Source: an uncultured bacterium (GTDB lineage Bacteria; Zixibacteria; MSB-5A5; CAIYYT01). Taken from it: a stretch of 64,000 nt of DNA. The stretch lies in contig CAVSCK010000005.1 in NCBI GenBank assembly GCA_963726455.1, positions 160,001-224,000 of the forward strand, written 5' to 3'. Position numbers and translations under genes: made by a program. The notes under the pieces were generated by a model that had not been told where the DNA came from, did no database searches, and was given only the letters and a program-made list of their open reading frames with translations. Below are positions 29,718 to 45,341 of this stretch, piece by piece. Position 1 is the stretch's first letter. Every line of letters starts with the position of its first letter.

Positions 29718-30063
29718 CTGTGATCTTACTGCGACGGTTTCGGGGGTGAGGATTGCCAGCCGGGAACTGCCCATAATGACGTGTGGGTCGATGTAACAAA
29801 TCGTTCCCCCAATGGCGGTTGTCGATTCGGGAGGAACCTGATTCGATTACGAATATTTGCGAATTATTGCGACCGTGGCCAATGGCGCTTTCAATCGTGC
29901 CGCCGCTTGAGACGATGACGCTGAGTCGCTTCTGGCATCAGCAATTCGCGAGCCGTCGCCGAAATTTTGCCGCCGTTACGCTGCAACGTCAATCGCAATT
30001 GAGATCCTTCTCCGCTTCGCCCAAGGTGAGCGGCTGGACTCCATGCGAGATACAAGAGCATAA

Positions 30064-31554
30064 TCATAATGCTAATGAAGCGACCACTCGAATGATACGC
30101 CGTGCAGAGATAAAGTAGTATTTCTTCTCAGGATCGGAAATGGTCACGGTCAACAAATACTTGCTACTCTTCAAGCCAGACTCAAGACTTGCCGACATAT
30201 CGACTGGGATTACTCCGTCTGCCGAGTCAAACTTTCTCTTTAGCAAAGTCTTGGTCTTGGACTTGGACTTTGACTGATTCATGATTTCAAGCAACTTATT
30301 CCTTCGATCCGATTCCCATTCACCATCCTTGAAAGGTATTCCAAGACTATCCTCGACAACGACCGGCTCTGAAGTTGAAATTGTGCCTTCGTTGTTACGT
30401 ACTATGTCAGGAATTCTTTGCAGAGTCAGCCAAGCCACAAACTCCATTCCATGTCTCTCTGGAAGCGTGACTTCAAAGTAGACACTGAGATTTCTGTATA
30501 GTAAAGCCTCGGGATTGTCATACAGTTCTGACTTTGTTCCTCGAATTATTCCAGATTCTACATTATCGCCTGTCGCAATGCTCTTGTTGAGTATCAGTAG
30601 GTCACTTATCTTTTGGTCCTTTGGTATCTCAAACTTGATCCAATCGTCTCCTTCATTACCCGCATCTCCTTTGACCAACAAGTGAGCATTGTAAGTTCCA
30701 GGTTGCAGCTTTGTAAGATTGAGATAAGACATGGCTCTAAACTGAGAACGATCCCTGCGACTGGCTGCAGTGAGAACACCCCGGAGTATTTGAAGATCAC
30801 ATACCTGAGACGCACTATCCAAGAAGACGGACTTTGTACTATCGAAAAGCTCAACCCTGACTCTGAGGTATCTGAGTTTGAGAGTTGCGGCTGTGAACTG
30901 ATCGCCAGGTACCCAGACACTGAACCAAACATCAGTGGCCGAGTCAGATGGAAACTTTGAGCAGTTGATCAGAGGCCAGATTGGATGAGCCAAGGGAAAC
31001 CCTTGCTCATCCTCCTCAACTATATGAGTTGGATAGTTCCTATCAAACTCAGACCAACATGAGATTTCCAAAGGCTTCTGACCATCCTCTGCTGATGGCC
31101 AAATGAACGTCCAAAGTCTGCAATCTTTACCTGCCTTGCATTTCCCAGTCATAATGATCTCGTTTTTCGGTATACCATTCTGGATGAACAATGACCAGCG
31201 TGAGTCAGGCAACGGATCGTCTATAGTAGTTCCAAGCAGGCCTTTGGCTCGCAGCGAGTCACAATAGTTCAAACGCCGGGCTATTTCGTCCCATGTTCTC
31301 TTGTAACCTCGCGCCCAGACATTGACACAGGTTTGAACTTCGTGAAAGTCATACGCCATTGTGAACTCTCTCTTGGCGTACTCTGGATCGACAATCAGAA
31401 AGAGGGCATACATACGCTGGATGTATGCCCTCTCCTCGGTATCTTGAACTGTGGACAATGATCGAAGTATTGGTTCCTGTGTTTGCATCTGAGCCAGACT
31501 TTGAGTGCTGGCACAGATTAGAAATAGCAACAACAGTAGGATACGTTTGGGCAT
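30064..31554 (-). CDS. Secreted hypothetical protein, possibly degenerate GWxTD-domain family (cassette L4 cargo)
   Basis: Signal peptide; RRLNYCD..DSRWSLFIQNGIP resembles the GWxTD DRG.IY..YG.P motif; C-terminal Ig-like segments; lower GC. Confidence 0.6.
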   Translation of the reverse strand: MPKRILLLLLFLICASTQSLAQMQTQEPILRSLSTVQDTEERAYIQRMYALFLIVDPEYAKREFTMAYDFHEVQTCVNVWARGYKRTWDEIARRLNYCDSLRAKGLLGTTIDDPLPDSRWSLFIQNGIPKNEIIMTGKCKAGKDCRLWTFIWPSAEDGQKPLEISCWSEFDRNYPTHIVEEDEQGFPLAHPIWPLINCSKFPSDSATDVWFSVWVPGDQFTAATLKLRYLRVRVELFDSTKSVFLDSASQVCDLQILRGVLTAASRRDRSQFRAMSYLNLTKLQPGTYNAHLLVKGDAGNEGDDWIKFEIPKDQKISDLLILNKSIATGDNVESGIIRGTKSELYDNPEALLYRNLSVYFEVTLPERHGMEFVAWLTLQRIPDIVRNNEGTISTSEPVVVEDSLGIPFKDGEWESDRRNKLLEIMNQSKSKSKTKTLLKRKFDSADGVIPVDMSASLESGLKSSKYLLTVTISDPEKKYYFISARRIIRVVASLAL

Positions 31555-31579
31555 CTGAACCTCAGTCGCTCACCGCCTC

Positions 31580-31768
31580 TCAGATCCCTGGTTGGTCACA
31601 ATAGGTACATGTCCAAATGCACCAACCACTGACTGAAAAGCAGCAGATCTCGTAGCAGCGATTTGCTGAAGTTGTCGATCCCTTGTTACCTTGACTCGCA
31701 ATGCTGAGTCCGGTTAGGAACAAAGCCAGCAACAAACCCGCAACTACCTGCCTCCAGAGTCTTCTCAT
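31580..31768 (-). CDS. Small secreted six-cysteine peptide precursor
   Basis: Signal peptide + RCYEICCFSVSGWCIWTCTYCDQPGI; RBS GGGG; ATGA-type overlap with the upstream gene's stop. Confidence 0.7.
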   Translation of the reverse strand: MRRLWRQVVAGLLLALFLTGLSIASQGNKGSTTSANRCYEICCFSVSGWCIWTCTYCDQPGI

Positions 31769-32238
31769 TTAATCCCCCTAATCTGAGCATGTCCACCAAA
31801 ATACCTGTTCAACCTTTCAAACGAAAGATTGTCTTCTTTTATAGTCATCAATGTAATTCCAGTAACGGGATCGATTGCAGTTCTGGTGATTGCATATCTA
31901 TCCTGCTTTTCCGATGGACAGCCGCAGTCAGAAATACCGGTCAACTCATAGAAATAGGTCGAGTCTGATTGAAAGACGATAGAAAGTCTGACTGCCTGAT
32001 TCAGTGAATCAGACAATATGGCCAGACTACGCTTCAGTTGAGGATATTCCTCAAAGGATGCTGGTGATAATTTGGGAAGGTCAAAGTTGGATTGAACTAC
32101 TGCTTCAGACATTGGTGTCGAGTTTACGTTGTGTCTGAAGATTTTATACAAAGAGAAGAAAGTCCAACCGATAGACACAATCAGAACGACTGAAAGAAGG
32201 ACATCCAAGACTCTGCGAAGTCCAACTGGCAATTCCAT
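31765..32238 (-). CDS. N-terminally anchored hypothetical protein (first gene of cassette L4)
   Basis: GGAGG RBS before ATG at 32238; one TM; in-frame upstream ATG at 32286. Confidence 0.65.
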   Translation of the reverse strand: MELPVGLRRVLDVLLSVVLIVSIGWTFFSLYKIFRHNVNSTPMSEAVVQSNFDLPKLSPASFEEYPQLKRSLAILSDSLNQAVRLSIVFQSDSTYFYELTGISDCGCPSEKQDRYAITRTAIDPVTGITLMTIKEDNLSFERLNRYFGGHAQIRGIK

Positions 32239-32380
32239 ACTGCCTCCACTCATGAACTGGAAAGGCCCAGTTCTTGCCACAGCCATTTTGCATGCCGCCT
32301 GCCACTGACAGGTTCTGTCAGTACCAAGTCAGATAACCTGGAAACATCGGCAGTAGAGTTCTGCCACTGCCAGAGTGTTA

Positions 32381-32396
32381 TGCAAGCAGTGTGCCG
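32381..32396 (-). promoter_or_regulatory. sigma54 -24/-12 promoter, cassette L4
   Basis: CGGCAC-ACTGC-TTGCA. Confidence 0.8.
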
Positions 32397-32484
32397 GATC
32401 AGAGTTTGAACAGTCAAAATCTGCTAAGTAAAGATATGTAAAGAAGATAACGAATCATTGTGAGAGTGTCCGCCTGCGGAAAAA

Positions 32485-32522
32485 TTCGCGAATTATTCGC
32501 GAATTCGCGAAAAGTTCGCGAA
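32485..32522. promoter_or_regulatory. Putative enhancer (UAS): 4 x TTCGCGAA
   Basis: Palindromes at 32485, 32496, 32504 and 32515; an extra copy at 32590. Confidence 0.75.
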
Positions 32523-32624
32523 ACATTACGAGGATTTGCGAGTCGATATTATAAGGTGCTGTCTTTCAATCAATTAGTCATTCGCAGTTTTCGCGAACTC
32601 TTTACGAGGATTTGCGAGTCGATG

Positions 32625-32660
32625 TTCCAGCCGACGGGATGTTACTCCCGTCGGCAGGAA
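32625..32660 (-). terminator. Conserved cassette-end hairpin (L3)
   Basis: TTCCAGCCGACGGGA-TGTTAC-TCCCGTCGGCAGGAA right after the dockerin stop codon. Confidence 0.7.
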
Positions 32661-32674
32661 TATATGCGATGCAG

Positions 32675-32953
32675 TTATTGGCAAATGCCGCAGTGTGGTT
32701 GCGCACCGCCGGCAAAGGCATATTGAACTATGTAGGCGACGTCGGATATGTCCCTTTGTGCATCGACCAAGATGGTACTAGGTGGAAAAATGTGAAGCAC
32801 TCGGAAGTCCAAGCGTTCCATTAGAATCACCTTCGTGGTAAGTTCGTCGATCGATTCCGTACGAAATTCGAGGTAGTTCATCCGGGTGAAGGCGCCACAT
32901 GTCGCTGTAGCAAAGAGAAAGCACGCGACAACGGCCAAAAATCTCCAATTCAT
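32675..32953 (-). pseudogene. Internally deleted paralog of the 33902..35980 metalloprotease-dockerin gene
   Basis: Signal peptide + YLEF..LHIFPPS (cf. YIEL..IHVFPPS) fused in frame to the identical last 25 aa DISDVAYIVQYAFAGGAQPHCGICQ. Confidence 0.75.
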
Positions 32954-32993
32954 TTTGTCCTTCCCCTTGGGGAGGCGCGGGCATTCCTTTGCT

Positions 32994-33377
32994 CTACGGG
33001 TTGTCACGAACGAGCTGGAAATCAACACCCAGCATGGTGCCCGAAGTCGCTCCAAGCGTAGTGCTCTTTGTCTGGTAACCGCTCTTTCCGGCGTATACCT
33101 GCCGATTTATCCTGCCAAAGCTAACCCAGGAATATCTTCCGCTGCTGTCCGCGTACACTCGATTGAAATGAATCGTATCCGAGGCAGATTCACTGAACCA
33201 ACCACCGACCAGGGGGGTGCCTCCGAGACTATCCGTGATTGTGCCCGAAACATTGGTTCCACCATGATCGCCCTCGCTGCATGACTCAATTGTCAACAGA
33301 GACAGCGTCGCAGAAACCAACAGGATGACGAGAATGCCTGCGCCTGTTCCAATGCTTAAAAGGTGTTCCGTTTTCAT
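32994..33377 (-). CDS. Small lipoprotein-like protein with carboxypeptidase-regulatory-like (beta-sandwich) domain
   Basis: Hydrophobic leader ending IESC; VSGTITDS...ADSSGRY..AGKSGYQT..VDFQL; RBS GGGAGG. Confidence 0.75.
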   Translation of the reverse strand: MKTEHLLSIGTGAGILVILLVSATLSLLTIESCSEGDHGGTNVSGTITDSLGGTPLVGGWFSESASDTIHFNRVYADSSGRYSWVSFGRINRQVYAGKSGYQTKSTTLGATSGTMLGVDFQLVRDNP

Positions 33378-33509
33378 TGTTAACCTCCCTCTCAGAGTGT
33401 GAGACTTATGATCCTTCATCGCGCGGGGGCAAGGAGCGACCCTTGCGTTACGTTCTGCTTTTGGGCCCCTCCGCGATCACTGACGTTTGAATCCCTGATT
33501 TGTGCAACG

Positions 33510-33581
33510 TCAACGATCCCTGGCGCACAACGCCGGAGGGGCTCGTTGTATTCCGAATAAGTTTGTGAACAAGTCACTCAT
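33510..33581 (-). CDS. Leader uORF with RAPP motif (MSDLFTNLFGIQRAPPALCARDR)
   Basis: GAGGGGAAGG RBS-GCAAA-ATG; conserved at 40101..40172. Confidence 0.6.
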   Translation of the reverse strand: MSDLFTNLFGIQRAPPALCARDR

Positions 33582-33684
33582 TTTGCCTTCCCCTCGTCAC
33601 TGACAGGATCTGACAGTGAACGCTGTTCGAGCGCTACCCTGGAAAAATTGGCTTTGGCGTTCAGCCACCATCAGCAGGATGTAG

Positions 33685-33700
33685 TGCAACAAGTGTGCCG
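33685..33700 (-). promoter_or_regulatory. sigma54 promoter, cassette L3 (no TTCGCGAA enhancer upstream)
   Basis: CGGCAC-ACTTG-TTGCA. Confidence 0.78.
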
Positions 33701-33851
33701 AGTGGGAGTTTGAACTGTCAGATTTTGCTAAGTGCGAGTTTGCAAAGAGGCCCACCAGCGCATAGCTCCTCCGCTGTTCCAGACTCCAAGATATGCAAGT
33801 CGTGGAGTCGTCGTAACACTTTTTTACTGGAAAGCGTGCGGAGAGTCAACG

Positions 33852-33887
33852 TTCCTGCCGACGGGATGTTACTCCCGTCGGCAGGAA
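33852..33887 (-). terminator. Conserved cassette-end hairpin (L2)
   Basis: Perfect 15-bp stem TTCCTGCCGACGGGA/TCCCGTCGGCAGGAA. Confidence 0.75.
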
Positions 33888-33901
33888 TATATGCTAAGCA
33901 G

Positions 33902-35980
33902 TTACTGGCAAATGCCACAATGTGGCTGCGCACCGCCAGCAAAGGCATATTGAACTATGTAGGCGACGTCGGAAATATCAACCGTGCAGTCGCCATTGGC
34001 GTCGCCTAGCCCAGTTGGTATCTGACAATCGCCCGGTTCCGGCCCCCCGGCGAAGATGTACTGGACAAGATAGACGGCGTCGGAAATATCAACTGAACCG
34101 CTGCCGTCGGCATCCCCGCAATAGGTGCACTGATAGTTGAAAGTGTAATTGATCGTCTGGGACTTGCCGCCATCAGGTCGCCAGGCATAAAACCGAGCCG
34201 TGTAAGTTTGATCCTGCGGCAGGAACATCATCGGCAAGGACTGCGGATAGTTCGATGCGTACAGCTTGTCCCAGATCGGTCGAGCAACGAGGTTATTTTG
34301 AGAATCGTATATGAAGCAGCGCACGTACGCCCAACTCTCAGTGAGCTTCCAATTTAGGAAGCCGTTGGAGTAGCTGATGTCAGTGAACACTGGGGATATC
34401 GATGGATCGGAGGAATTCAACCTGATCGTAAACGGCGAGCCATTGTTGATAGTTACATAATAGATCTGACCTGTGACGCAGGTCTGGTCGTCGTAATTGT
34501 GACCGTCCCAAATCGCGAAACTTTGGGTCGGGCTCACTCGGAACATATTGTCATCGGTAACAGATATCAGATTGACGAAATCCATGTCCAGCGTGTAGAT
34601 ACGCACCAGGTCGCCAGGATTCACATTTTGAATCGACTGCCAGCCGCCGTTGTTGGGATCGATAGGATCGCAAACGCCGTCGCCGTCAGAATCTCGCCAG
34701 CCAAGGTGTGCCAACGTGCTCGGGCACGCCCCCGAATAGTCCGACGTCTTCATAACACAGTACAAACATGGCTCACAGCAGTGTTGGCAATTAGCGTTAG
34801 GAACTTGAAGATAGCCGAACCTGTCCTGGCAAGAGGAATTGCCGCTGCAGTCACCCCCTTGGCGTTCATATTCGTCTGGTGCACGAAACAGGTGCGAGAT
34901 CTCGTGAGACAGTCGTTCGTGCAACCGAACCGCGCTCGCGTCAGTCATGTATCCCGATACCATCAGGGGGCCCATATAGTCCCTGTGTTCGGTGCCCGAC
35001 ATGACACAGAAGCCAGAGGCCCCGGCAGGGAAACCGTCCAGAAAGTAACGGGGCGACGGTTGGTTGACGTTTCTGACAACGTACGCAATTATGCCCCAGT
35101 TGGCTTGCAAGTCCTTCCTTAAGGAATTGACCATGCCAAAGGCTCCGTCCCACTTATCAGCGTAGCCAAAATTCTCCTGAATCTGGCTTAACCAACCGAA
35201 GCAGTAGGACGCCAAGGGGTAACAAAGACTCAGAGGAGTCTGATTGTTAGGGTAGAGATAGGCATCGCAGGGTTCATTAATCATTATGGGCACTCCGTCT
35301 TGGATGTTGAACGAATGGATTCCCGCTGCCCGGCTTTCTCTATAGATCCAGCACAGGCGAGCGTTGTTTTCGGTCGCCAACTCCCACAGGAAGTGGCAAG
35401 CTTCCACAGTCTCGACCAGAACACTGTCTAGCTCATAACTTGTCCAGTCTTCATCATGACTTTCACTCTCCGGAGTGATGAGCCATACTGCCACCTTTCC
35501 CATCAGATAATTCGCTGTGAACATGTTGGCGGGAGAGGGCACGGGAAAACTTGCGACTGGCACCGGCAGAAGTAGCGAATCCGCGAGAGTCGGTGGAGAA
35601 CCTTCATCACGAAAATTAGACGATTTCGACAACGAAGGTTCATTACTGTCTCTGATACAAAGAAAACTTTCGTACGCACCGCGATTCGATGCCCTTTGGG
35701 TCATTTGCTTGCCGCCAACGAACACAGATATTTTGTCGAACTGCGACACTGCTGTTCGAGGATCAACGCTGAGAATCTCGACAATCGCAGCTCCAGCTGC
35801 TTCGGCCGAGGGTGGGAACACATGAATCGGTCGCAAACCCCCAATTTCGAGCTGCTCAAGAACGGAATCCATTTCGGAAAAGCTCCCCACATTTAATTCT
35901 ATATAGCCTAAGTTGCTGCCAATTGCGCAGGCCGCAATGAAACAGATGGACGCTGCCATGACTGCCATTGATCGCAACAT
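33902..35980 (-). CDS. Secreted zinc metalloprotease-like protein with C-terminal double dockerin
   Basis: Signal peptide; HEISHLFRAPDEY; CVM Met-turn-like; CGDADGSGSVDISDAVYLVQYIFAGG...GDANGDCTVDISD. Confidence 0.82.
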   Translation of the reverse strand: MLRSMAVMAASICFIAACAIGSNLGYIELNVGSFSEMDSVLEQLEIGGLRPIHVFPPSAEAAGAAIVEILSVDPRTAVSQFDKISVFVGGKQMTQRASNRGAYESFLCIRDSNEPSLSKSSNFRDEGSPPTLADSLLLPVPVASFPVPSPANMFTANYLMGKVAVWLITPESESHDEDWTSYELDSVLVETVEACHFLWELATENNARLCWIYRESRAAGIHSFNIQDGVPIMINEPCDAYLYPNNQTPLSLCYPLASYCFGWLSQIQENFGYADKWDGAFGMVNSLRKDLQANWGIIAYVVRNVNQPSPRYFLDGFPAGASGFCVMSGTEHRDYMGPLMVSGYMTDASAVRLHERLSHEISHLFRAPDEYERQGGDCSGNSSCQDRFGYLQVPNANCQHCCEPCLYCVMKTSDYSGACPSTLAHLGWRDSDGDGVCDPIDPNNGGWQSIQNVNPGDLVRIYTLDMDFVNLISVTDDNMFRVSPTQSFAIWDGHNYDDQTCVTGQIYYVTINNGSPFTIRLNSSDPSISPVFTDISYSNGFLNWKLTESWAYVRCFIYDSQNNLVARPIWDKLYASNYPQSLPMMFLPQDQTYTARFYAWRPDGGKSQTINYTFNYQCTYCGDADGSGSVDISDAVYLVQYIFAGGPEPGDCQIPTGLGDANGDCTVDISDVAYIVQYAFAGGAQPHCGICQ

Positions 35981-36001
35981 GCCTCCTTTCGACTTCGCGC
36001 A

Positions 36002-36361
36002 TCATTCAACACGACACAAATAGAAATAGACGCGTGCATCGGCCGTGAGATCTCGGAAATACTCCCGCTTGGAGCGGTACCCGGTGGCCGATGCCCATAG
36101 ATAACGGTTGCGTCCAGGTGTCGTGTACAGATGGAAAGAACCCGAAGTGTTAGTGTATACGGGACTGAAATTTGTGTCCGGTTCACTCTCGTTTCCCCAC
36201 CGAACACAGGCATTTGACATAGGAGTGTCCGTCGCACTGTCTGTCACCACTCCGCTGACGAGTACACTCGGATCGCCAAGGTTCCTACTGTGGCAACCTA
36301 CGGCCAAGACAATGACGGCAAGCGCAAACGCGCTCAACGCAACGATCCTTGATACTTTCAC
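36002..36361 (-). CDS. Small lipoprotein with carboxypeptidase-regulatory-like domain
   Basis: AAGGAG RBS + GTG at 36361; lipobox LAVGC; VSGVVTDSAT..TNTSGSF..SATGY; paralog of 32994..33377. Confidence 0.78.
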   Translation of the reverse strand: MKVSRIVALSAFALAVIVLAVGCHSRNLGDPSVLVSGVVTDSATDTPMSNACVRWGNESEPDTNFSPVYTNTSGSFHLYTTPGRNRYLWASATGYRSKREYFRDLTADARVYFYLCRVE

Positions 36362-36624
36362 GACTTTCTCCTTCCAAAAACGTTTCCAACGCACTGTCTT
36401 ATCTTCATCGAGACTTTCCCGGTTTCGACACTTGAGCAGGCATGGGTCCGAGGATGTTAATCCGTAGCGGTTGACTCGGAACCCCGACCCAACTATCCTG
36501 CCCCACTCATCTGGATCCACTATCCCGACGGATACTGGCCCAATGGAAACTAAGTCTCGCCATTGTTACTGACGTTCAATAACTCACTTTGTGGAGTGTC
36601 AGCAACATTTAATTGACACGGTCC

Positions 36625-36675
36625 TCACGGCGGAGCTTTGTTAATTCTGAAAGGAACGGTTATATGTTCAGTCAT
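36625..36675 (-). CDS. Leader uORF ending KAPP-stop (MTEHITVPFRINKAPP)
   Basis: Same RBS/ATG context as the other leaders; aligns without gaps with MKDLFTNLFGIQRAPP. Confidence 0.55.
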   Translation of the reverse strand: MTEHITVPFRINKAPP

Positions 36676-36778
36676 TTTGCCTTCCCCCCGTCACTGACAG
36701 GATCTGACAGTGGACGGTGTTCGTGCGCTACCCTGGAAAGATTGGCTTTGGCGTTCAGCCACCATCAGCAGGATGTAG

Positions 36779-36794
36779 TGCAACAAGTGTGCCG
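36779..36794 (-). promoter_or_regulatory. sigma54 promoter, cassette L2
   Basis: CGGCAC-ACTTG-TTGCA. Confidence 0.8.
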
Positions 36795-36882
36795 AGTCGG
36801 AGTTTGAACTGTCAGATTTTGCTAAGTGCGAGCTTGCAAAGATGTTAGCCAAGCATCGACATAATCGTCGTCATACCAATTT

Positions 36883-36901
36883 CTCGCGAAAAGTTCGCGA
36901 A
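36883..36901. promoter_or_regulatory. Putative enhancer: 2 x (T/C)TCGCGAA
   Basis: CTCGCGAA-AAG-TTCGCGAA followed by TTACGAGGATTTG. Confidence 0.65.
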
Positions 36902-36931
36902 ACCTTACGAGGATTTGTGAGTCGATGTTCC

Positions 36932-36959
36932 TGCCGACGGGATGTTAGTCCCGCCGGCA
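36932..36959 (-). terminator. Cassette-end hairpin variant (L1)
   Basis: TGCCGACGGGA-TGTTAG-TCCCGCCGGCA after the S8 gene stop. Confidence 0.6.
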
Positions 36960-36977
36960 TTAACATTGAGAATACGG

Positions 36978-38819
36978 CTACAAACAGCTCCCACAGTGTG
37001 GTCGTGCGCCACCGGCAAAGATGTACTGTATCAAGAAGACAGCGTCGGAGATGTCGACAGCGCAATCGCCGTTGGCATCGGCAAGGCCGGCCTGTACCTG
37101 GCAATCGCGTGGTGCGGCGCCACCAGCGAAAATGTATTGGATGATATACACAGCGTCCGCGATGTCGACGGTGAGATCGTCGTTGGCATCGCCACAGCTC
37201 TTGCAGGCGATCATCACCGCACGCTGCTCGTTGACACGTCCCCAGCCGACCTGGTCATTGACGCGGCGGTATTCATTATCGGGCACGCCGTAGTGCTGCC
37301 GTTCGCACGACTTGCGAAGGATGTCGTACATGACCTCCGCCGAATCCTGATAGTGCCACCCCATCAGCCAAGGATCACGCACCAGCAGTCGGGCAGCGAT
37401 CCCCGCCACCACCGGTGCCGCGAAGGAAGTGCCGGTCAGGTGGCAAGCGTAATTTTCGTTTTCGTCACATGTATTACCCGACGTGCTAGGATTCAAACCA
37501 CCATAGCCCATCAAGTCGAGCGACCACAGATCCTTGCCCGGCGCCAGCAGATCAAGTGTCGCGCCTGTTGCCGAGCCGTCAACGCGATCATCCTTGTTGT
37601 CGCTCATGCCGACCCCAAGTACGTACCGTGAACTCGCTGGATACTCCACCCAACCTTTGTTCCCCGCAGCGACAATTGTGATCTTGCCGTTGCGATACAT
37701 CTCCCCCAACCTCCGCTCAATTTCGGAACTGTAGTTGATGCTCCAGGTGATGCACACGATTTGTGCCGCACCCGGCTGATAGCACACCCAGTCGAGGGCG
37801 CGAAGCCACACCGAGTTACTCGTCATACCGTACCAGTCCACGATCTTCACCGGCATTATTCTGGGCCGCGACTCCGTCCCCGCAAGTCCCACGGCGTTGT
37901 TTGTGTAGGCTTCCAGGATTCCTAAAACTGCCGTGCCGTGCCAGCAAATAGGATTCGAGTAGGTGCATTCGGTCGACGGATCATCGTCCGGCGGTCCGCC
38001 TGCCGACCAGCCCGCAGCATCGTATGGATGCCACCAGCAGTTGGACCGGAAGTCCTCGTGTGTCATCTGGTAGCCGGCATCCAAGACGGCTACGATAGGA
38101 GGCGTTAAGTTCGGATCGGAATACGGTTGCGCCGCTTCCCAGTCGATATCGGCCCCGGGCGTGCCGCCATTCTGACCGGTGTTTTTGAATTGCCACTGCT
38201 CTCCAAAGTAGGGATCGTTGGTGTTGGCATGCGCAGGATAGGTCAGATTCGGCTCCGCAACAATGCACAGACCGGTGTTGTTGAGGTTGCGTGCCAACTG
38301 CGTTATGTCGTAGGAATATCTGCCATTGTAGCTCACAATATGTGTCACCGTCAGACTCTCTTGGAAAGTCTCGGTGACCGTAAGACTGTAGATATGTTCA
38401 GTGGAGACAATCTGTTCCGGCGTCGTGGTCGGTTTCCAAGTAATAATCAAAGAGTTGTCCAACTTGCCACGGTCATCATAGACGGTCCTGACCACGGGGT
38501 TGACCATCAAGATGGTATCATTCATTCTTAGCGAACTCATGACGTCCTGAAGATCATAGCCCGTCTCGATGCCGAATACGAAGAACTGATTCGGGGCCTC
38601 TTCAATGTCGAAGGTGTCACTGAGAAAGGGCTGGGCAATGGCAAACTCAGCCGCGTTCGGCCCGGGGATGTTTGGATCGAAGCGAATCTCCACGAGATTA
38701 GTATAAGTCTCAAAATAGAGCGGACTGCCGTCCAAATCGTAATACCAATAGTTGCCCTGAGCATGCAGAGGAGCCGCCAACAGGGCCAGCAGGAACATGA
38801 CTGCAATTATCTTTTTCAT
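36978..38819 (-). CDS. Secreted S8 (subtilisin-like) serine peptidase with C-terminal double dockerin
   Basis: Likely true start MKKIIAVMFLL at 38819; VAVLDAG, HGTAV, AAGN, GTSFAAP; CGDANDDLTVDIADAVYIIQYIFAGG. Confidence 0.9.
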   Translation of the reverse strand: MKKIIAVMFLLALLAAPLHAQGNYWYYDLDGSPLYFETYTNLVEIRFDPNIPGPNAAEFAIAQPFLSDTFDIEEAPNQFFVFGIETGYDLQDVMSSLRMNDTILMVNPVVRTVYDDRGKLDNSLIITWKPTTTPEQIVSTEHIYSLTVTETFQESLTVTHIVSYNGRYSYDITQLARNLNNTGLCIVAEPNLTYPAHANTNDPYFGEQWQFKNTGQNGGTPGADIDWEAAQPYSDPNLTPPIVAVLDAGYQMTHEDFRSNCWWHPYDAAGWSAGGPPDDDPSTECTYSNPICWHGTAVLGILEAYTNNAVGLAGTESRPRIMPVKIVDWYGMTSNSVWLRALDWVCYQPGAAQIVCITWSINYSSEIERRLGEMYRNGKITIVAAGNKGWVEYPASSRYVLGVGMSDNKDDRVDGSATGATLDLLAPGKDLWSLDLMGYGGLNPSTSGNTCDENENYACHLTGTSFAAPVVAGIAARLLVRDPWLMGWHYQDSAEVMYDILRKSCERQHYGVPDNEYRRVNDQVGWGRVNEQRAVMIACKSCGDANDDLTVDIADAVYIIQYIFAGGAAPRDCQVQAGLADANGDCAVDISDAVFLIQYIFAGGARPHCGSCL

Positions 38820-38889
38820 TTTGTTAGACTCCGATTCTAGATTTTCGGACCGATGCGCATCTGGTAAGGCAGACGCTGTAGGTCCGGGG

Positions 38890-39978
38890 TTATGACTTTT
38901 CGTTACTCTTCTTGAGATTGGTGTCAACCACCAGCACCGATCCGGGCATGCGACCAGCCATTCGGCCCGTGGCGACATAAGCTTTCTCACCTGTGGGTGA
39001 AAAAATGATGTCGGAACCGGCGAGCGGAACGAGTGGATTAGGACCGTAGCCGAAGAGCGAGATACCCTGGCGATAGGCGCCGCTGGCGGCATCGAAAACA
39101 TAGATCGTTCCCGAGTCCCAGTCCCAGCCGGGTATGCCAGGATCCGTCATCCAGACTTCGCTGCCGTCAGGCGATACAGCGATCCCGCCGAATCGGCCCA
39201 GCGTCGGATAAGCCCAGATTACGCTTCGGCTGTTGAGATCGTAGCCCATTACGAAGCTCCGTCCGAGATCGTTGAACCACCGAAGGCACTTGAAGTAGAG
39301 CCGGTTTCGAGTGAAATCAATGCACGACCCAATCGGCTGGATAGTGTCTCCGGGCACGAGGTGCATGGGCAGCAACTCCAGCTTGCGGTCAAGGTAATCG
39401 TAGCTGTAGTAATCGAAACCGAGACTACGGTCACCGTTGCCATAGAGTAAGTGGCGTGCTTCGTCCACCCACAGGCCGTAGAACCCGACGATCGTGTCGA
39501 TTCGCTCCACCGCAAAGGATGGCAGATTCATAATGTACAACTCCCCCTGCATACTATTGCCGAGCGCCAGTCCTCGTTGGTTGTCGATGACCGGCAAGAA
39601 ATAGCGGGGCAGTTCAGTCACAAACTGGAGTGTTTGCGCATCGTAGACACGAGTTCGGGCATTGGCAAAGTCGACTGGGTTATAATCGACGATCAGATAG
39701 CGACCATCACCTGTCACTTCCAACCCGGCTGCGTCCCCGAATGACTTGGCTTCCGTAATGCTGTCCACCACAGAGTCACTTTCCATGTCGATCTTGTAGA
39801 CGTTGGACAGAGCTATGTTGAACTCCGAATAGTACAACCACCCCTTGTAATGCTGCACGACTGGATCGGTCGGACAGGTGGGGCAGTCTTTGGAGCAGCC
39901 GGCGGCCATCAGGGCGACCAACAGCAACAGCGCCGTCAGTGAACCGCGGACGCTTCCGAGCAATAACACTTTCTTCAT
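38890..39978 (-). CDS. YncE-like beta-propeller lipoprotein (3' end possibly frameshifted)
   Basis: Lipobox AAGC, CPTCP, SPDGSEVW, FSPTGEKAYV repeats. Confidence 0.8.
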   Translation of the reverse strand: MKKVLLLGSVRGSLTALLLLVALMAAGCSKDCPTCPTDPVVQHYKGWLYYSEFNIALSNVYKIDMESDSVVDSITEAKSFGDAAGLEVTGDGRYLIVDYNPVDFANARTRVYDAQTLQFVTELPRYFLPVIDNQRGLALGNSMQGELYIMNLPSFAVERIDTIVGFYGLWVDEARHLLYGNGDRSLGFDYYSYDYLDRKLELLPMHLVPGDTIQPIGSCIDFTRNRLYFKCLRWFNDLGRSFVMGYDLNSRSVIWAYPTLGRFGGIAVSPDGSEVWMTDPGIPGWDWDSGTIYVFDAASGAYRQGISLFGYGPNPLVPLAGSDIIFSPTGEKAYVATGRMAGRMPGSVLVVDTNLKKSNEKS

Positions 39979-40100
39979 GACATTCTCCCTTCTTAGCTGT
40001 AACTTACCTGCGAATTGTCAGCAGAGCGCAAACTTGCGTTACGTTCTGCTTTTGGGCCCCTCCGCGATCACTGACGTTTGAATCCCTGATTTGTGCAACG

Positions 40101-40172
40101 TCAACGATCCCTGGCGGACAACGCCGGAGGGGCTCGTTGTATTCCGAATAAGTTTGTGAACAAGTCCTTCAT
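40101..40172 (-). CDS. Leader uORF with RAPP motif (MKDLFTNLFGIQRAPPALSARDR)
   Basis: GGGGAAGG RBS; lies within the predicted sigma54 transcript leader; its 3' half forms a hairpin over 40056..40133. Confidence 0.6.
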   Translation of the reverse strand: MKDLFTNLFGIQRAPPALSARDR

Positions 40173-40274
40173 TTTGCCTTCCCCCGTCACTGACAGGATC
40201 TGACAGTGGACGGTGTTCGTGCGCTACCCTGGAAAGATTGGCTTTGGCGTTCAGCCACCATCAGCAGGATGTAG

Positions 40275-40290
40275 TGCAACAAGTGTGCCG
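40275..40290 (-). promoter_or_regulatory. sigma54 promoter, cassette L1
   Basis: CGGCAC-ACTTG-TTGCA; IHF-like TAAGT..TTTGCAAAGATGTTA upstream. Confidence 0.82.
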
Positions 40291-40378
40291 ACTGAGAGTT
40301 TGAACTCTCAGATTTTGCTAAGTGCGAGTTTGCAAAGATGTTAGCCAAGCATCGACATAATCGTCGTCATACTAATTT

Positions 40379-40416
40379 CTCGCGAAATATTCGCGAATTC
40401 GCGAAAAGTTCGCGAA
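40379..40416. promoter_or_regulatory. Putative enhancer: 4 x (T/C)TCGCGAA
   Basis: Sites at 40379, 40390, 40398 and 40409 (11/8/11 spacing, as in L4). Confidence 0.78.
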
Positions 40417-40560
40417 ACCTTACGAGGATTTGCGGCTCCATGTTCTTCTGACCGAGAGGCGGATTCACCGGTTTCGGTGAGGTGATTTCCAGGGGCGTCT
40501 TTGACGATATAAAATGCAGAGACGAAACTAAACAATTTGGAGCGTTATACGTTTTTTCTA

Positions 40561-40588
40561 TTGACAGCACGCTTCACAAGTTTATATT
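40561..40588 (+). promoter_or_regulatory. sigma70 promoter of the secreted-protein/regulator operon
   Basis: TTGACA-16-TATATT. Confidence 0.7.
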
Positions 40589-40638
40589 CGCATTTAGGAT
40601 AGCAAAAAAAGAGCAAGACTCAAACCCAGAGTTTAACT

Positions 40639-40992
40639 ATGATCAAAAGGTTGATGTTATTGGCGACCTTATCGGTCCTCCTCGGGGTGTTGGTACTTTC
40701 CGTGCCGCTCGTGGCCGCTGACAGTGCGAGACCGCTGAAGGGACAGACGACGGTGGTCAAGGCACAACCGGTCACAGCGGGACCCTCGGTTCAAGCAGTT
40801 CCAGCAGCAGGCGCATCATTCCTGCAATTCCTGAGATTCAATATTGCGCGCTGGCTGGGTATTCCCGGTCCGGTAGTCGCGCCAAAGCCGCCGGTCAAGG
40901 ATGGACCGCAGAAGAGCAGTGGCAACTGGATAATTGACCCAAGATATATTAGTGCACCAATGAGGGATAACGGGGGACATGAGCCAACTTAG
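40639..40992 (+). CDS. Small secreted protein (candidate signalling pro-peptide)
   Basis: Sec signal ending VAA-D; Pro/Ala-rich linker, one amphipathic helix, short polar C-terminus; 18 bp upstream of the TPR regulator. Confidence 0.7.
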   Translation: MIKRLMLLATLSVLLGVLVLSVPLVAADSARPLKGQTTVVKAQPVTAGPSVQAVPAAGASFLQFLRFNIARWLGIPGPVVAPKPPVKDGPQKSSGNWIIDPRYISAPMRDNGGHEPT

Positions 40993-41010
40993 TGATAAGG
41001 TATCGCTCTA

Positions 41011-43241
41011 ATGATGATAAGTATTGAGCGTACATTTGCTCAAGTCCACGCTTTGATTGAAAGGGCGGACTATGCCGAGGCGGAGAAGCTTCTTGCACCG
41101 GTGAGAAGTGAGTGCAAAACTCGGAGGGACGCCACGTCGCTTTCCGAAATGTACTTCTGTTACGGAAGATGTTACTATTACACTGGCAGGTATACCAAGG
41201 CCCTAGCTCGTCTGAGAGCGGCTGTCCGCTTATGCCAGGATTCAGCAAATCACAGACTCTTTGCGCGAGAAAAGGTGCTTCTGGGCGTGATTATGCGATC
41301 CCAGGGTAGACAACGAGATGCCGTAGAAGCATTTACAGAAGCTTTTGCTGCGCGCAAGAGGGCGAGGGACTATGACGGACTCTTTGTCCCCCTTGTCCAT
41401 CTCGCACTTTCCCACTTTTTAGGCGGAGATTTGCATCAAGCGCGGTCCGTCATTGGCGAGGCGCTTTCATACACTCTGAAATACAACGGGGTCTCGGATC
41501 TGCGCCTCTGCCTTCTCAATCGTTTTCTTTTCGAGATGTTCTCTGGCGAGCTTGCCAAGTGCCAGGAGACGCTTGCCGAAGTACGTCTACAGGAGCTCGG
41601 CGTCGTGGATTCGGCGCATGTCAGCTTACACTCCGGCCAATTATTCCTCTTCAGAATGCAGAGTGCCGAAGCGAGCGCTCTGATCAAAGAGGCGATGAAT
41701 ACTTACGCTCGAAACCAGATTCGCAGAGACTACGTCGTCTGCCTTGAGTTCCTCGGCATGAACGAGTACTTCGCGGGCAACTACAAGAAAGCGAAAGCAT
41801 ACTACCAACAGGTTCTCGAGATGCCGGAGCCGACGGCCTCGGCGGTGGCGCAGACACTCAGAATGCTGGCGGATGTCTACATAGCGGAAGGCAATTGGCA
41901 GAAAGCGACCGAGACGGCCGCCAAAGCTGAACAGGCGATTACGAAGATCAACGAACGCATCGAACTGGGCGCTTTGTGGCGGGCACTGGCGCAGATTGCC
42001 GAACATGACGGTGATGCGGCTGCGGCGCGCGAGTCCTGATACAGAAGTCGCTGGAACTGTTGCAGCAGTGCGGTGCGCGCTACGAGTTGGCGCTCAGCCA
42101 TGTGGCCGCCGGAATGTCAGCCGCGTTCACAATGGAGGAACGCCGCAATCATCTGGAACTGGCCCGGACGCTGTTCACCGAAATGGGCGTGCCGAAACGC
42201 GTGGCGCAGGTCGAGAAAGCAATTGCCGGGCTGAATCGTGCGGATAAGAAAACGGCTCGCGACGGTAAAGCCAGGATTGAGGCGCCGACAATTATCACCC
42301 GCAGCCCCATGATGCTGTCAATCCTGGAGCAGATCGCGATGGCGCGTGAGTCCGATCTCACGGTGTTAATCACGGGTGAAACGGGAACCGGCAAGGACCT
42401 GATCGCGGAGTATATTCATTACACTTCCCGGCGCGCTGACAAACCGTTTCGTAATGAGAACACTGCCGCCATCACGGAGTCGCTGCTGGAGACGGAATTG
42501 TTTGGCCATTGTAAAGGCGCCTATTCCGGAGCCGACTATGACAAGCCGGGACTGATCGAGTCGAGCGACGGCGGGACGTTCTGCTTCAACGAGATCGCCG
42601 AAATTCCACCGGCGACGCAGGCGAAGCTTTTGCAGGTGCTGGAAAGCAAAAGTGTGCGCCGCCTGGGCGAGGTCGACAAGCGACCGATTGACGTACGCTT
42701 TGTGGCGATGACCAACCAGAATCTGCCGGCTCTGATTGCCCGCCATGAGTTCCGCGAAGACTTATATCACCGGCTGCAGCAGTTGACCTTCCAGTTGCCA
42801 CCGTTACGCGATCGCCGGGAAGATATCACGCCGCTGTTCGAGCATTTCCTGTTATTGGCTGGATTCAGAAAGGAAGGATTGCCGAGCGCGCAACATCCGC
42901 TGGTGGTGGATCGGCTGCGTGAACTGGACTGGCCGGGCAACGTGCGCGAATTGCGCAATTTCTCCGGACGGGTGGCGGCATTGGCTCCCGACGGCGACAC
43001 CAATAAGATCCTGCGCCTCATTGAGGATCAGGCCAGAGAACACGCGAAGAAAGCTGCATCCGACGACAACAACGGCAATGGCCGCCAGACTCCGTACCGC
43101 GAATCTGACGCCGAAGCGCTGGATACGGAAGAAATGGCGGAATGTCTGGAGCGTTGCCGGGGCAATCTCTCGGCCACCGCCCGCGAACTCAACATTCCCG
43201 AGTCCACCCTGCGCTATCGCCTCCGCAGGCAGGGCAAGTAG
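41011..43241 (+). CDS. TPR-domain sigma54 enhancer-binding protein (TPR-AAA+-Fis HTH), split by a frameshift near 42035
   Basis: 41011..42039 is TPR repeats; the other frame continues LIQKSLELLQQC into GETGTGKD, ELFGHCKGAYSGA, FREDLYHRL, WPGNVREL and HTH GNLSATARELNIPESTLRYRL. Confidence 0.88.
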
Positions 43242-43364
43242 CCCGTCGCTGAATCAGACTTAATCAAATTCCACGCACGTCATCCTTCTTCGGACAAAGA
43301 GTCGTCCGGCAAGAGTCGCTGATCGCTGTCTCGCGAACGTGGAGCCGCAAATCCTCGTAAAGAA

Positions 43365-43402
43365 TTCGCGAATTCGCGAACGTTTCGCTAATTTTTCGCG
43401 AA
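43365..43402. promoter_or_regulatory. Putative enhancer: TTCGCGAA x3 + TTCGCTAA
   Basis: Sites at 43365, 43373, 43384 and 43395. Confidence 0.75.
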
Positions 43403-43488
43403 TCTGCGAGTCGGGGTTTGCGAACAAACTTGCACTCCCGGTTTTGTCATTCAACGAGTTAGCAAATTAGTTCCATCACATCCTGAAT

Positions 43489-43504
43489 TGGCACGCCGGT
43501 TGCA
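43489..43504 (+). promoter_or_regulatory. sigma54 promoter, cassette R1
   Basis: TGGCAC-GCCGG-TTGCA; IHF-like ATTCAACGAGTTA upstream. Confidence 0.88.
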
Positions 43505-43549
43505 TTACCGTACTGCAACTGGGCACGGAGTCCATGTCAGGAGAGGAAA

Positions 43550-43633
43550 GTGGCAGGAAGAAAGATTGATACACACGCTGAGGGTACGAACCTCAAAACC
43601 ACACAACTTGCTCTTTTCAGGCGACCCCCGTGA
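43550..43633 (+). CDS. Leader uORF ending RRPP-stop (MAGRKIDTHAEGTNLKTTQLALFRRPP)
   Basis: AGGAGAGG RBS + GTG; a hairpin overlaps the PP-stop codons. Confidence 0.5.
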   Translation: MAGRKIDTHAEGTNLKTTQLALFRRPP

Positions 43634-43765
43634 TGCCCCGCTATCCAAACCTGGTGTCACGGGTAGCACAAGCGACCGGCAGCCACCAAAGCTGCCGGTT
43701 GCTGGAAATCAAAGTAAGTAAAGGTTGAATTTGATGGAATTGTTTACATTCATAGGAGGCAGAAA

Positions 43766-44497
43766 ATGAAGAAGATTATCAGCGGAATCATGATCGTCGT
43801 CTGGTTGGCGACGTTGGTGGGAGGTTGTCAAAGCGGCAATCAGGTTCCGAACAAGGTAGCCGAGCCGCAAAGTTCAGCAATTGAGTCAGGCAACAGCAAG
43901 ATCATGGTTGATCCAAGTCAGGAGAAACATTCCATACTCATGGCGAATCTGGCGTTGCCCGCAGTGGCGAACTTTACCGACACGCTGGAAGCACAGGGCT
44001 ACGGGTACCGGGAAAATAATTCAGTCATCCTGATCGAAAATCACTATGATGACGAGTGGCGAGACGCCGTGCAACCGGCAAACACAGATCAAAGTCTCAA
44101 GCGCTCTCCGAACAGGAGGATCATCGGCGCCGACACTTTAGTCTGGCAAGTTTTCGAGAATGCGGCACTCGATTCGAGCAAACATACGGCGATCATAACG
44201 GGTTACCATGAAGGCCAAGTCAAGAGTGTCTTCGTCGAAGCGAATGTGACTGTCGAGAACCACTCACTCATTCGGGGTATGGTCTTAGATGGAAATGGGT
44301 CCACAATGGATGATCCCCTTGTTTTCGGCTTTTGGACCAACTGGGGTACTTGTGTCGCGGTGGCCACGGCTCGCTGCCTCGTTACTTGTGGGTTATCGGG
44401 ACCACTATACCTACATTGTCTCGCGGGGTGCGAAGGTTGGGCCATCACCTTCTGCGCTATTGGGGCATACTTAACTTGCTTGATAACTAACAGATAG
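43766..44497 (+). CDS. Lipoprotein with C-terminal hydrophobic Cys-rich bacteriocin-like (halocin C8-like) tip
   Basis: Lipobox VGGC; C-terminal WTNWGTCVAVATARCLVTCGLSGPLYLHCLAGCEGWAITFCAIGAYLTCLITNR (7 Cys). Confidence 0.7.
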   Translation: MKKIISGIMIVVWLATLVGGCQSGNQVPNKVAEPQSSAIESGNSKIMVDPSQEKHSILMANLALPAVANFTDTLEAQGYGYRENNSVILIENHYDDEWRDAVQPANTDQSLKRSPNRRIIGADTLVWQVFENAALDSSKHTAIITGYHEGQVKSVFVEANVTVENHSLIRGMVLDGNGSTMDDPLVFGFWTNWGTCVAVATARCLVTCGLSGPLYLHCLAGCEGWAITFCAIGAYLTCLITNR

Positions 44498-44520
44498 TAG
44501 ATGAGAAGGAATCACATCTA

Positions 44521-44772
44521 ATGAATTGGCTCGCTTCAAAGAAGAACGGCATCAGGATTTCGACTGCTGTCTTTTGTCTCACGGGTGTGCTGTTGCTCGC
44601 CGTAGCTCGGCCCTGGCTGGCCTGGGGTATAGCCGGGCTCGCAGCAGGCCTTGTCAGCTTACCTTCTGCATGCGGGGGAAAGTTCACATTTTGGAAAGTT
44701 TTGGGAATCCTGTCAGCCGAGAGTATTGGGGCGGGTCTGCTTGCCCATTTAATCTATTTGGTAACCCGTTAG
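44521..44772 (+). CDS. Small 3-TM membrane protein, candidate immunity protein
   Basis: Directly after the Cys-rich precursor; similar to 48188..48445 (TFW[K/Q]V). Confidence 0.65.
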   Translation: MNWLASKKNGIRISTAVFCLTGVLLLAVARPWLAWGIAGLAAGLVSLPSACGGKFTFWKVLGILSAESIGAGLLAHLIYLVTR

Positions 44773-44908
44773 AAGCGACAACATCGGATTTGCACCGCAG
44801 GATGTGTCACAGGGTCGGAGTGACGTTACTTCGACCCTATTGATCATAAACATGGCCGTCGCCGAAGCGCGGCTCGATTACCGAACTTAGATTTTCTGCT
44901 TAAGTTCA

Positions 44909-45196: not shown

Positions 45197-45212
45197 TGGC
45201 ACGCCGGTTGCA
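45197..45212 (+). promoter_or_regulatory. sigma54 promoter, cassette R2
   Basis: TGGCAC-GCCGG-TTGCA. Confidence 0.88.
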
Positions 45213-45257: not shown

Positions 45258-45341
45258 GTGGCAGGAAGAAAGATTGATACACACGCTGAGGGTACGAACC
45301 TCAAAACCACACAACTTGCTCTTTTCAGGCGACCCCCGTGA
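45258..45341 (+). CDS. Leader uORF ending RRPP-stop (copy 2)
   Basis: Identical to 43550..43633. Confidence 0.5.
   Translation: MAGRKIDTHAEGTNLKTTQLALFRRPP

Follow-up and report, generated by a model that had tools for sequence, protein, structure and literature searches.

Short Pro-Pro leader peptides upstream of secreted-peptidase cassettes in a Zixibacteria genome, a family of candidate ribosome-stalling leaders

The window analysed in this work is the whole stretch of 64,000 nucleotides at C5:160001-224000 of the genome of an uncultured Zixibacteria bacterium (hereafter G000), and all positions given below are window positions. Between 32 and 45 kb the window carries an island in which cassettes for secreted proteins are preceded by leader sequences with short upstream open reading frames (uORFs). 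The three left-arm leaders, L1, L2 and L3, contain one such uORF each, with a Pro-Pro pair at or near its end; a further Pro-Pro uORF is present in two copies in the right arm, and a regulator is encoded between the arms (Table 1). The initial annotation of this DNA had proposed the three left-arm uORFs, each with a Shine-Dalgarno (SD) sequence, CAAA and ATG, and all three were found in the places that it gave, on the minus strand. It was incomplete in two respects, since it mentioned neither the right-arm uORFs nor the participation of the APP codons, as one of the strands, in a conserved RNA helix. As we describe here, the uORFs very probably encode leader peptides that are translated and under selection.

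Table 1. Features of the leader island, in window positions
Feature	Position	Strand	Description
uORF L1	33510..33581	-	MSDLFTNLFGIQRAPPALCARDR, then stop; 23 codons + TGA; RAPP at codons 13-16 (sequence, translation)
uORF L2	36625..36675	-	MTEHITVPFRINKAPP, then stop; 16 codons + TGA; KAPP and then the stop at once (sequence, translation)
uORF L3	40101..40172	-	MKDLFTNLFGIQRAPPALSARDR, then stop; 23 codons + TGA; recent duplicate of L1
RNA element, leader L1	33463..33544	-	Outer helix of codons 13-16 (GAGCCCCUCCG) with CGGAGGGGC about 75 nt downstream; single-sequence fold, covariation
RNA element, leader L2	36552..36638	-	Fold, consensus structure, covariation
RNA element, leader L3	40054..40135	-	Fold, consensus structure, covariation
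Right-arm uORF, copy 1	43550..43633	+	GTG start; VAGRKIDTHAEGTNLKTTQLALFRRPP, then stop; ends LALFRRPP-TGA
Right-arm uORF, copy 2	45258..45341	+	Sequence identical to copy 1
Sigma54-type promoter match, L1	33685..33699	-	GGCACACTTGTTGCA; genome pattern scan
Sigma54-type promoter match, L2	36779-36793		Same 15-mer, GGCACACTTGTTGCA; genome pattern scan
Sigma54-type promoter match, L3	40275-40289		Same 15-mer, GGCACACTTGTTGCA; genome pattern scan
Palindrome clusters	32486-32550, 36865-36929, 40380-40444, 43355-43410		TTCGCGAA
Cargo of L1	32994..33377	-	127 aa, membrane-anchored or lipoprotein-like; weak CarboxypepD_reg-like match (E 2.8e-4, below Pfam cut-off)
Cargo of L3	38890..39978	-	362-aa lipoprotein (CSKDCPTCP...YKGWLYY)
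S8 peptidase with dockerin	36978..39101	-	Next after the L3 cargo
Central regulator, TPR part	41011..42039	+	TPR domain
Central regulator, sigma54 activator part	42060..43241	+	Bacterial enhancer-binding protein (bEBP); Sigma54_activat (AAA+) and HTH_8
Fourth, diverged leader	32284..32429	-	71% identity; own sigma54-type site; CAAAATG start in frame with a 173-aa ORF (MAVARTGPFQFMSGGS...); PP motif lost

Leader peptides in this genome and in its relatives

The arrangement GGGGAAGG-CAAA-ATG is present upstream of L1, L2 and L3, and in L1 the SD sequence, GGGGAAGG, is located 4 nt 5' of the ATG. Because L3 is an almost exact copy of L1 (98% identity, repeat D6), the two are counted as a single observation. 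Since, in addition, the promoter and the 5' untranslated region (5'UTR) of L1-L3 are homogenised (95-100% identity), conservation inside G000 is by itself weak evidence. L2 and L1 share 45 of the 48 nt that precede the ATG but only 26 of the initial 48 nt of the reading frame, where they align gap-free, so that the earlier description of L2 as diverged past the start codon and yet gap-free was correct. At codon positions 1, 2 and 3, the two ORFs are identical in 9, 11 and 6 of 16 cases. In a permutation test with the 22 differences held (20,000 trials), a protein similarity equal to or higher than the observed one, together with the absence of a stop, had P = 0.006-0.0085; in the same set of trials, [RK]APP was retained with P = 0.00125. 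As a genome-wide null set we used intergenic, ATG-started short ORFs of 10-40 aa. Within its SD-like subset (n = 418) three ORFs carry [RK][AG]PP or a PP end, and these are exactly L1, L2 and L3; in the complete set, with SD or not (n = 3131), [RK][AG]PP is found in six.

Homologous loci were located through the regulator and the cargo proteins and not through the leader DNA, and 16 of the 31 non-self rows of cargo-protein matches were examined, leaving out partial and contig-edge matches. A BLAST search with the 251-nt leader against 40 relatives gave no leader-length match outside G000; its two short matches, of 22 and 25 nt, corresponded to the CTGTCAGATYCTGTCAG motif in G003. The genus (g1) is formed by G000, G001, G002 and G003, and g2 denotes the sister genus. 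Six further homologues were recovered, five of them in the three other species of the genus (one broken) and the sixth on a metagenome contig (L096). In the left arm of G002, the uORF at C273, MTDITDTPFRVERGPPHAILKKRVTATPQNGDIKRL (which begins MTDITDTPFRVERGPPHAILKK), presents the RGPP form and lies behind a sigma54-type site. Two further members in G002, at C150 (MNWQKPAPFRNNKAPP) and C113 (MNWQKHAPLRSNKAPP), end in KAPP-stop, and in the latter the stop is TAA and the last Pro codon is CCC. The uORF at G003 C120 (MNWHKPAPLRANKAPP) is also of the KAPP-stop form; the length and the ending of L2 recur in this way in two copies of G002 and in G003. Homologues of the 362-aa lipoprotein follow the uORFs of G002 C150, G002 C113 and G003 C120. 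The L096 locus combines a sigma54-type site, a RAPP uORF (MSDFVIAPFSVDRAPPA) and a perfect 11-bp helix (GAGCCCCUCCG/CGGAGGGGCUC). In G002, G003 and L096, the homologues of the 362-aa lipoprotein have the uORF 146-255 nt upstream. Among the rows examined, all three g1 cargo homologues outside G000 possess a uORF, since G002 C150, G002 C113 and G003 C120 each carry one upstream. Two loci were obtained when metagenomes were searched with an alignment of ten cargo proteins, L096 and one of the g2 type, and a metagenome scan with the exact 22-nt piece of the inner hairpin gave no match.

The intact family consists of seven distinct forms (L1/L3, L2, G002 C273, G002 C150, G002 C113, G003 C120 and L096), all with Pro-Pro at codons 15-16. 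Its consensus is M-x6-P-[FL]-R-x-N-[RK]-[AG]-P-P, where the conserved residues are P8, F/L9, R10, N12 (Q/E/D in some), R/K13, A/G14, P15 and P16. The peptides measure 16-36 aa, with 12 residues ahead of the core; they have no membrane segment and, in agreement with the initial annotation, no signal peptide. The latter had also described T6, F9, I11 and (R/K)APP as kept, which holds between L2 and L1, but T6 and I11 are not conserved in the wider family. Codons 2-7 are unconstrained and have diverged to saturation, yet no indel is present in them. Codon 11 is hypervariable between fixed neighbours, with six different residues (I, V, N, S and A among them), and synonymous variation was observed at codons 10, 13, 14, 15 and 16.

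The reading frame behaves as that of a coding sequence. Frame 0 is free of stops in 7/7 intact members, and the other two frames are stopped in 5/7 and 7/7; the BLOSUM score per site is 2.11 in frame 0 vs 0.61 and 0.44 in the other frames, and over codons 8-16 the nucleotide identity at positions 1, 2 and 3 is 0.75, 0.79 and 0.49. The selection at the protein level that had been suggested from L1 and L2 is thus supported in three other species and a metagenome contig, including on a point that had been named beforehand as one where the proposal could fail, namely the conservation of the frame in homologues. The dN/dS comparison that had been suggested as well was carried out as the ratio of nonsynonymous to synonymous differences (pN/pS), and the whole-ORF values, 0.24-1.39 over 15 pairs, are uninformative because codons 2-7 are saturated. 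Judging from these patterns, the uORFs appear to form a family of leader peptides, spread over the genus, that are translated and act in cis.

Pattern scans gave the distribution of the ending. The NKAPP-TGA pattern (AAYAARGCNCCNCCNTGA) was found in 4/4 genomes of the genus and in 4/197 others of the class, and the reversed control pattern gave eight matches. A scan of the species collection (GTDB-wide) for P-[FL]-R-x-N-K-A-P-P-stop produced seven matches. In three of these, whose records bear the title Candidatus Zixiibacteriota or 'uncultured bacterium', an ATG lies 16 codons upstream and the match is a uORF; the remaining four have no start codon at that distance. In the loci L058, L059, L060, L074, L075 and L097, which belong to g2 and to one metagenome contig, the same cargo family is accompanied by short frames embedded in hairpins, which end in ..CRRLTP-TGA or contain RSPP (MNHSTINRSPPSLTLPWS in L060; ..RSPPSLTLPWS before the stop). 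The translation of these g2-type frames is doubtful, since their start codons are not conserved.

The right-arm uORF has orthologues in G002 (two copies) and G003 that end in ...VLALFRRPP-stop, and LALFRRPP-TGA is thus present in three species. Over the last nine codons the only differences are AGG/AGA and CGA/CGT, both synonymous. The corresponding pattern scan gave five matches, all of them within the genus and in 3/21 genomes of the family, vs one match of the control. The PP-stop codons of this uORF form the 5' strand of a hairpin, which is followed by a second strong hairpin.

An RNA helix built on the motif codons

The outer helix in which codons 13-16 participate (Table 1) encloses an inner hairpin with the loop yCCACAAA. 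From L1 to L2 one pair changes from U-A to G-C and another from C-G to U-G, and the pairing is preserved. Across eight leaders, 89.9% of the cells are paired, and in 9/18 pairs both partners vary. Covariation scored 0.407, vs 0.197 in shuffles (0/500 reach 0.407) and 0.03-0.14 in slid controls. Since the R/K difference, at position 2 of codon 13, changes in concert with the base that it pairs with, some of the conservation is attributable to RNA. The helix leaves unexplained the start codon, the frame, the constant length and codons 8-10. The leader is under both coding and RNA-structure constraint. An Rfam scan of 30000-46000 with E up to 1 returned only a chance microRNA match.

Two other features of the leader RNA should be mentioned. 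At columns 93-100 of alignment A3 (e.g. 36580-36590, minus strand), the loop yCCACAAA is complementary to a downstream CUUUGUG in some leaders; as codons 12-13 of the uORF are a further potential partner of this CUUUGUG, a three-way alternative pairing of the loop, CUUUGUG and codons 12-13 may be possible. On the other side of the uORF, just 5' of its SD, there is an imperfect hairpin/direct repeat, CACTGTCAGATCCTGTCAGTG (33598-33618, 36692-36712 and 40188-40208, minus strand), which is also present at the intergenic positions C4:687378 and C4:1464912 of G000 and twice in G003. Since it recurs at unrelated intergenic places and in G003, it is a separate small repeat.

Promoters, regulator and cargo of the island

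The sigma54-type sites of the island have the form GGCAC-N5-TTGCA, with the GG-N10-GC element of sigma54-dependent promoters, and, on the strength of this match, those of L1-L3 are regarded as sigma54-type promoters that presumably function as such. The gene rpoN is present in G000, with a DNA-binding domain match of 197 bits. The sigma54-type sites are preceded, at a distance of about 90 nt, by clusters of TTCGCGAA palindromes, a combination found nowhere else in the genome, and the palindromes are probably activator binding sites. At the corresponding position the sister genus presents TGACGAAAC-GGTTTCGTCA palindromes. The TPR and activator parts of the central regulator lie in separate frames in G000 and in one ORF in relatives, of about 730 aa and, over the range given, ~720-800 aa; the split (42030-42060) is a frameshift or an assembly error. 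The sigma54 control invoked in the initial annotation finds support in the promoters, the bEBP and rpoN, but it is not fixed in the module. At G002 C150 a sigma70-like site (TTGACA-18-TACAAT) lies just upstream of the uORF, so the module is not tied to sigma54.

In the left arm, the order within a cassette is leader, small lipoprotein-like protein and large secreted dockerin enzyme. One of the large enzymes is the S8 peptidase, and the other, of 692 aa, has a sequence that reads as an HExxH motif. A repeated block, formed by the dockerin-coding 3' end of large cargo genes and a GC-rich hairpin (CCTGCCGACGGG...CCCGTCGGCAGG), is present at 32616-32752, 33843-33979 and 36919-37055; these blocks delimit the cassettes and suggest duplication of whole cassettes as units.

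Stalling at the Pro-Pro pair, its alternatives and known systems

In the accessible text of PMC12992588, RAPP and RGPP are described as versatile arrest cores that are not relieved by elongation factor P (EF-P), with Pro in the P and A sites. According to the same text, the Arg of ApcA, ApdA and ApdP cannot be replaced by any of the 19 other residues, Lys included; the Ala may be Gly, and the change of Ala to Arg is not permissive. An R[AG]PP core is present in L1, L3 and L096 (RAPP) and in G002 C273 (RGPP), and these members appear to fit the known arrest core. In the proteome proxy of G000 (3032 gene proxies), RAPP occurs once vs 11.3 expected, RGPP 0 vs 9.9 and RAGP 2 vs 19, and two controls are not avoided (AAPP, 20 vs 16.8 expected; AGPP, 13 vs 14.8). 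The avoided set comprises RAPP, RGPP, RAGP, QAPP and KGPP, with ratios of 0.0-0.15. This avoidance agrees with the one published for RAPP-like motifs at the level of whole proteomes. Since RAPP, RGPP and RAGP are avoided and KAPP, RRPP and AAPP are not, the organism seems to be sensitive to Arg-type cores. The mention of RAPP as a known stalling motif in the initial annotation is therefore well founded, as it is a known core and is avoided in this proteome. Its statement that CutF-type uORFs also carry RAPP needs correction: as given in the accessible part of PMC9426467, the RAPP-bearing copper uORF is that of CruR/DUF2946, and the main text of the CutF paper (PMC9973294), to the extent accessible, contains 'RAPP' 0 times and uses the wording 'proline-rich motif'.

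A second group of members ends in PP-stop: L2, G002 C150, G002 C113 (with TAA), G003 C120 and the right-arm uORFs of G000, G002 and G003. In E. coli, a C-terminal Pro-Pro disturbs termination in every context tested, according to the available portion of PMC3834316. The stop follows PP directly in 4/4 K-type members and in the RRPP members, and in 0/3 R-type lineages, which have at least one further codon, an association between R/K and the stop that is based on few independent events. Because the stop codon follows directly, a termination pause is indicated for the KAPP members, and for L2 (KAPP-stop) and the right arm (RRPP-stop) a pause at termination would be the more likely event.

We infer from these motifs that ribosomes stall at Pro-Pro, and we hold with moderate confidence that conserved Pro-Pro leader peptides hold the ribosome and set the expression of the cargo. 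The ribosome would be held at the Pro-Pro pair, at codons 15-16. In the R-type (RAPP in L1 and L3; the RGPP/RAPP homologues) the known nascent-chain arrest would be at work, Pro15 occupying the P site and Pro16 the A site; the K-type (L2, KAPP-stop) and the right arm (RRPP-stop) would owe the pause to slow termination behind the C-terminal Pro-Pro. With either mode the ribosome would be kept at nearly one mRNA position, where, once parked, it would keep the outer helix open and set the output of the cassette that follows, with its lipoprotein and secreted protease. A pulling force is excluded as the means of release because the chain has 15-16 residues and no localisation signal, and the release input would likely be Pro-tRNA supply, EF-P supply or ribosome rescue. 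For the organism, the leaders would represent a post-initiation control layer added to the island of secreted-peptidase cassettes. A more specific proposal, which we put forward as tentative and rather doubtful, is that of a signal-less minimal RAPP/RGPP arrest module that interchanges at one position with a KAPP/RRPP-stop pause and that, together with the helix, acts as a ribosome-occupancy switch tuning the sigma54-driven peptidase cassettes to the translational status; in such a switch the 15-residue nascent chain would lie wholly inside the exit tunnel.

Several observations weigh against stalling leaders that control the cargo. L2 and its three homologues (KAPP) and the right-arm uORF (RRPP) fail the known core, because the Arg is irreplaceable and Ala to Arg is not permissive. 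KAPP (7 vs 9.0 expected) and RRPP (8 vs 7.6) are not avoided in G000; KAPP, which the initial annotation had grouped with RAPP, is not a known arrest core either. Even RAPP alone is insufficient without a suitable N-terminal neighbouring sequence, as reported in the accessible text of PMC12992588. Genes ending in PP are only mildly rare in G000 (3 vs 6.2 expected), and the RNA helix could explain part of the conservation of codons 13-16. The KAPP-stop homologue at G001 C221 (locus L095, ~1468-1518) has a GTG start, a premature TAA at codon 9 and a partly deleted hairpin, and appears to be a decayed copy; the fourth leader copy in G000 lacks the motif.

The route to the cargo genes adds further difficulties. 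The cargo start is located 146-255 nt past the PP codons, and the motif ends 0-20 residues ahead of the stop. The candidate route of SD unmasking by the stalled ribosome is not supported, since in the folding model footprint masking did not open the cargo SD in 6/7 leaders; the thermodynamically predicted probabilities that the cargo SD is unpaired, free/stalled, are 0.53/0.53, 0.50/0.51, 0.70/0.60, 0.41/0.41, 0.60/0.61, 0.67/0.67 and 0.50/0.75. No terminator-like site was found between the uORFs and the cargo within the window, and the second hairpin is predicted to be unaltered by footprint masking, so a classical terminator/antiterminator attenuator is not supported either; one weak terminator-like site was observed at G002 C150. 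Rho is present in G000. The spacers (132-255 nt) are strongly structured and not C-rich (C/G 0.73-1.12, below 1 in 7/8), and a Rho-loading region next to the stall site is not supported by this base composition. Possible routes to the cargo are mRNA folding, Rho access and 5' stabilisation.

Other explanations of the leaders were also considered. If the leader were a purely structural RNA, e.g. one for protein binding or processing, its function would reside in the two helices together with the yCCACAAA loop, and the ORF would be incidental. Covariation strongly backs both helices, a CCNCC strand that pairs with GGNGG must read Pro-Pro in one frame, and the R/K difference at codon 13 follows its partner; the g2 leaders of the same cargo have hairpin-embedded frames whose start codons are not conserved, and folding shows no translational switch. 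However, 7/7 intact members have an ATG that an SD precedes by 7-9 nt, although the sequence of the SD region differs, and the distance from ATG to PP is always exactly 15 codons, indel-free despite the saturation of codons 2-7. Frame 0 alone is open, conservation is lowest at the third codon position, codons 8-10, which take no part in the helix, are conserved (P-F/L-R), and Rfam gave no match. At G002 C113, moreover, the change from CCG-TGA to CCC-TAA preserves Pro-stop and not the RNA letters. We consider a purely structural leader quite unlikely.

Leaders that sense supply are familiar, with a Trp pair in trpL and Pro codons in mgtL and mgtP. An attenuator in which the Pro codons report Pro-tRNA or EF-P, with no nascent-chain-specific arrest, would suit a tandem Pro near the end of a 16-codon leader in an alternative-looking RNA structure. 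The cargo are secreted peptidases (S8 with dockerin and the HExxH protein), and because the cassettes encode such enzymes, induction on amino-acid shortage is plausible. In Salmonella, leader ORFs with Pro codons respond to EF-P/proline, as stated in the accessible text of PMC3641672 and PMC6460261. A pure codon sensor, however, has no need of the conserved [RK]13, [AG]14, R10 and P8. The proteome specifically avoids RAPP and RGPP; no terminator/antiterminator pair was found in the leaders examined, and RAPP arrest is EF-P-independent in the accessible parts of PMC12992588 and PMC9426467. An attenuator of this kind is therefore unlikely, although it retains some plausibility. Far less credible is that the uORFs encode trans-acting small proteins, or that a chance resemblance was spread by gene conversion among paralogous leaders. 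L1 and L3 are indeed recent duplicates and the promoters and 5'UTRs of L1-L3 nearly identical, but homologues occur in three other species and a metagenome contig behind different promoters and 5'UTRs, the genome-wide null gave 3/418, and the N-terminal half varies freely, unlike that of a folded or targeted small protein.

Stalling at Pro-Pro in a short leader has partial parallels in several known systems. In SecM-secA, MifM-yidC2 and CutF-cutO a stalling uORF is likewise located upstream of structured RNA; in contrast to them, predicted SD accessibility is not raised here in 6/7 leaders, and the stall-codon helix would close far upstream of the cargo SD. L2, its three homologues and the right arm recall the YbeL-PP model of termination pausing and termination-arrest leaders such as TnaC in their Pro-Pro-stop end (mostly UGA), and the short leader with a long spacer is as in tnaC, but here no C-rich Rho-loading region is found past the stop and PP-ending genes are only mildly under-represented. 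Salmonella mgtL and mgtP are likewise short signal-less leader ORFs, whose Pro codons link the rate of translation to alternative folding of the leader; they differ in sequence context from the present uORFs, for which neither a terminator nor a Rho signature was detected.

Nearest to the family described here is the RAPP/RGPP ('RQH') arrest-peptide class, which has the core R (or Q/H)-[AG]-P-P and includes ApdA, ApdP, seven uORFs of S. lividans and CruR of Bordetella pertussis. Common to both are the R-[AG]-P-P core in a small co-oriented upstream ORF, a variable N-terminal and a conserved C-terminal part, and avoidance in the host proteome. CruR is similar, too, in its long spacer (162 nt, vs 146-255 nt in the present leaders) and in the few residues that separate its motif from the stop. 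The members of the class are mostly of 100-200 aa, whereas here the peptides have 16-36 aa and the nascent chain 15-16 residues at the presumed stall. The family also differs in that Arg and Lys alternate among homologues, with the Lys forms always ending in a stop, in that the motif codons are a covarying helix strand, and in that the cargo are cassettes for secreted peptidases behind sigma54-type promoters. The RAPP-type arrest peptides known so far are proteins of the membrane or for export, whose stall is released by pulling force. A signal or membrane segment and a spacer of >30 aa are a published search criterion for monitoring substrates (PMC10987492, accessible text), and the uORFs described here have neither. 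In CruR, RAPP arrest blocks Rho termination (PMC9426467, accessible part), and the spacers here are unlike that.

No RAPP-type leader this short or signal-less was found in the literature searched; the supplementary lists of orphan RAPP/RGPP uORFs by phylum in PMC10987492 and PMC12992588 may include related uORFs. Surveys of annotated proteomes probably miss such uORFs because they are below the length cut-offs of gene callers, and more leaders of this type may exist elsewhere. The discussion in PMC12992588 asks how an arrest of this class could be used or released without a pulling force. For this question the 16-codon leaders would be a minimal system provided by nature, with a presumed arrest-competent chain of 15 residues, and the family provides natural variants at the critical Arg (R/K) and Ala (A/G) of the known core, in which the stop after PP seems to be tied to the choice between R and K.

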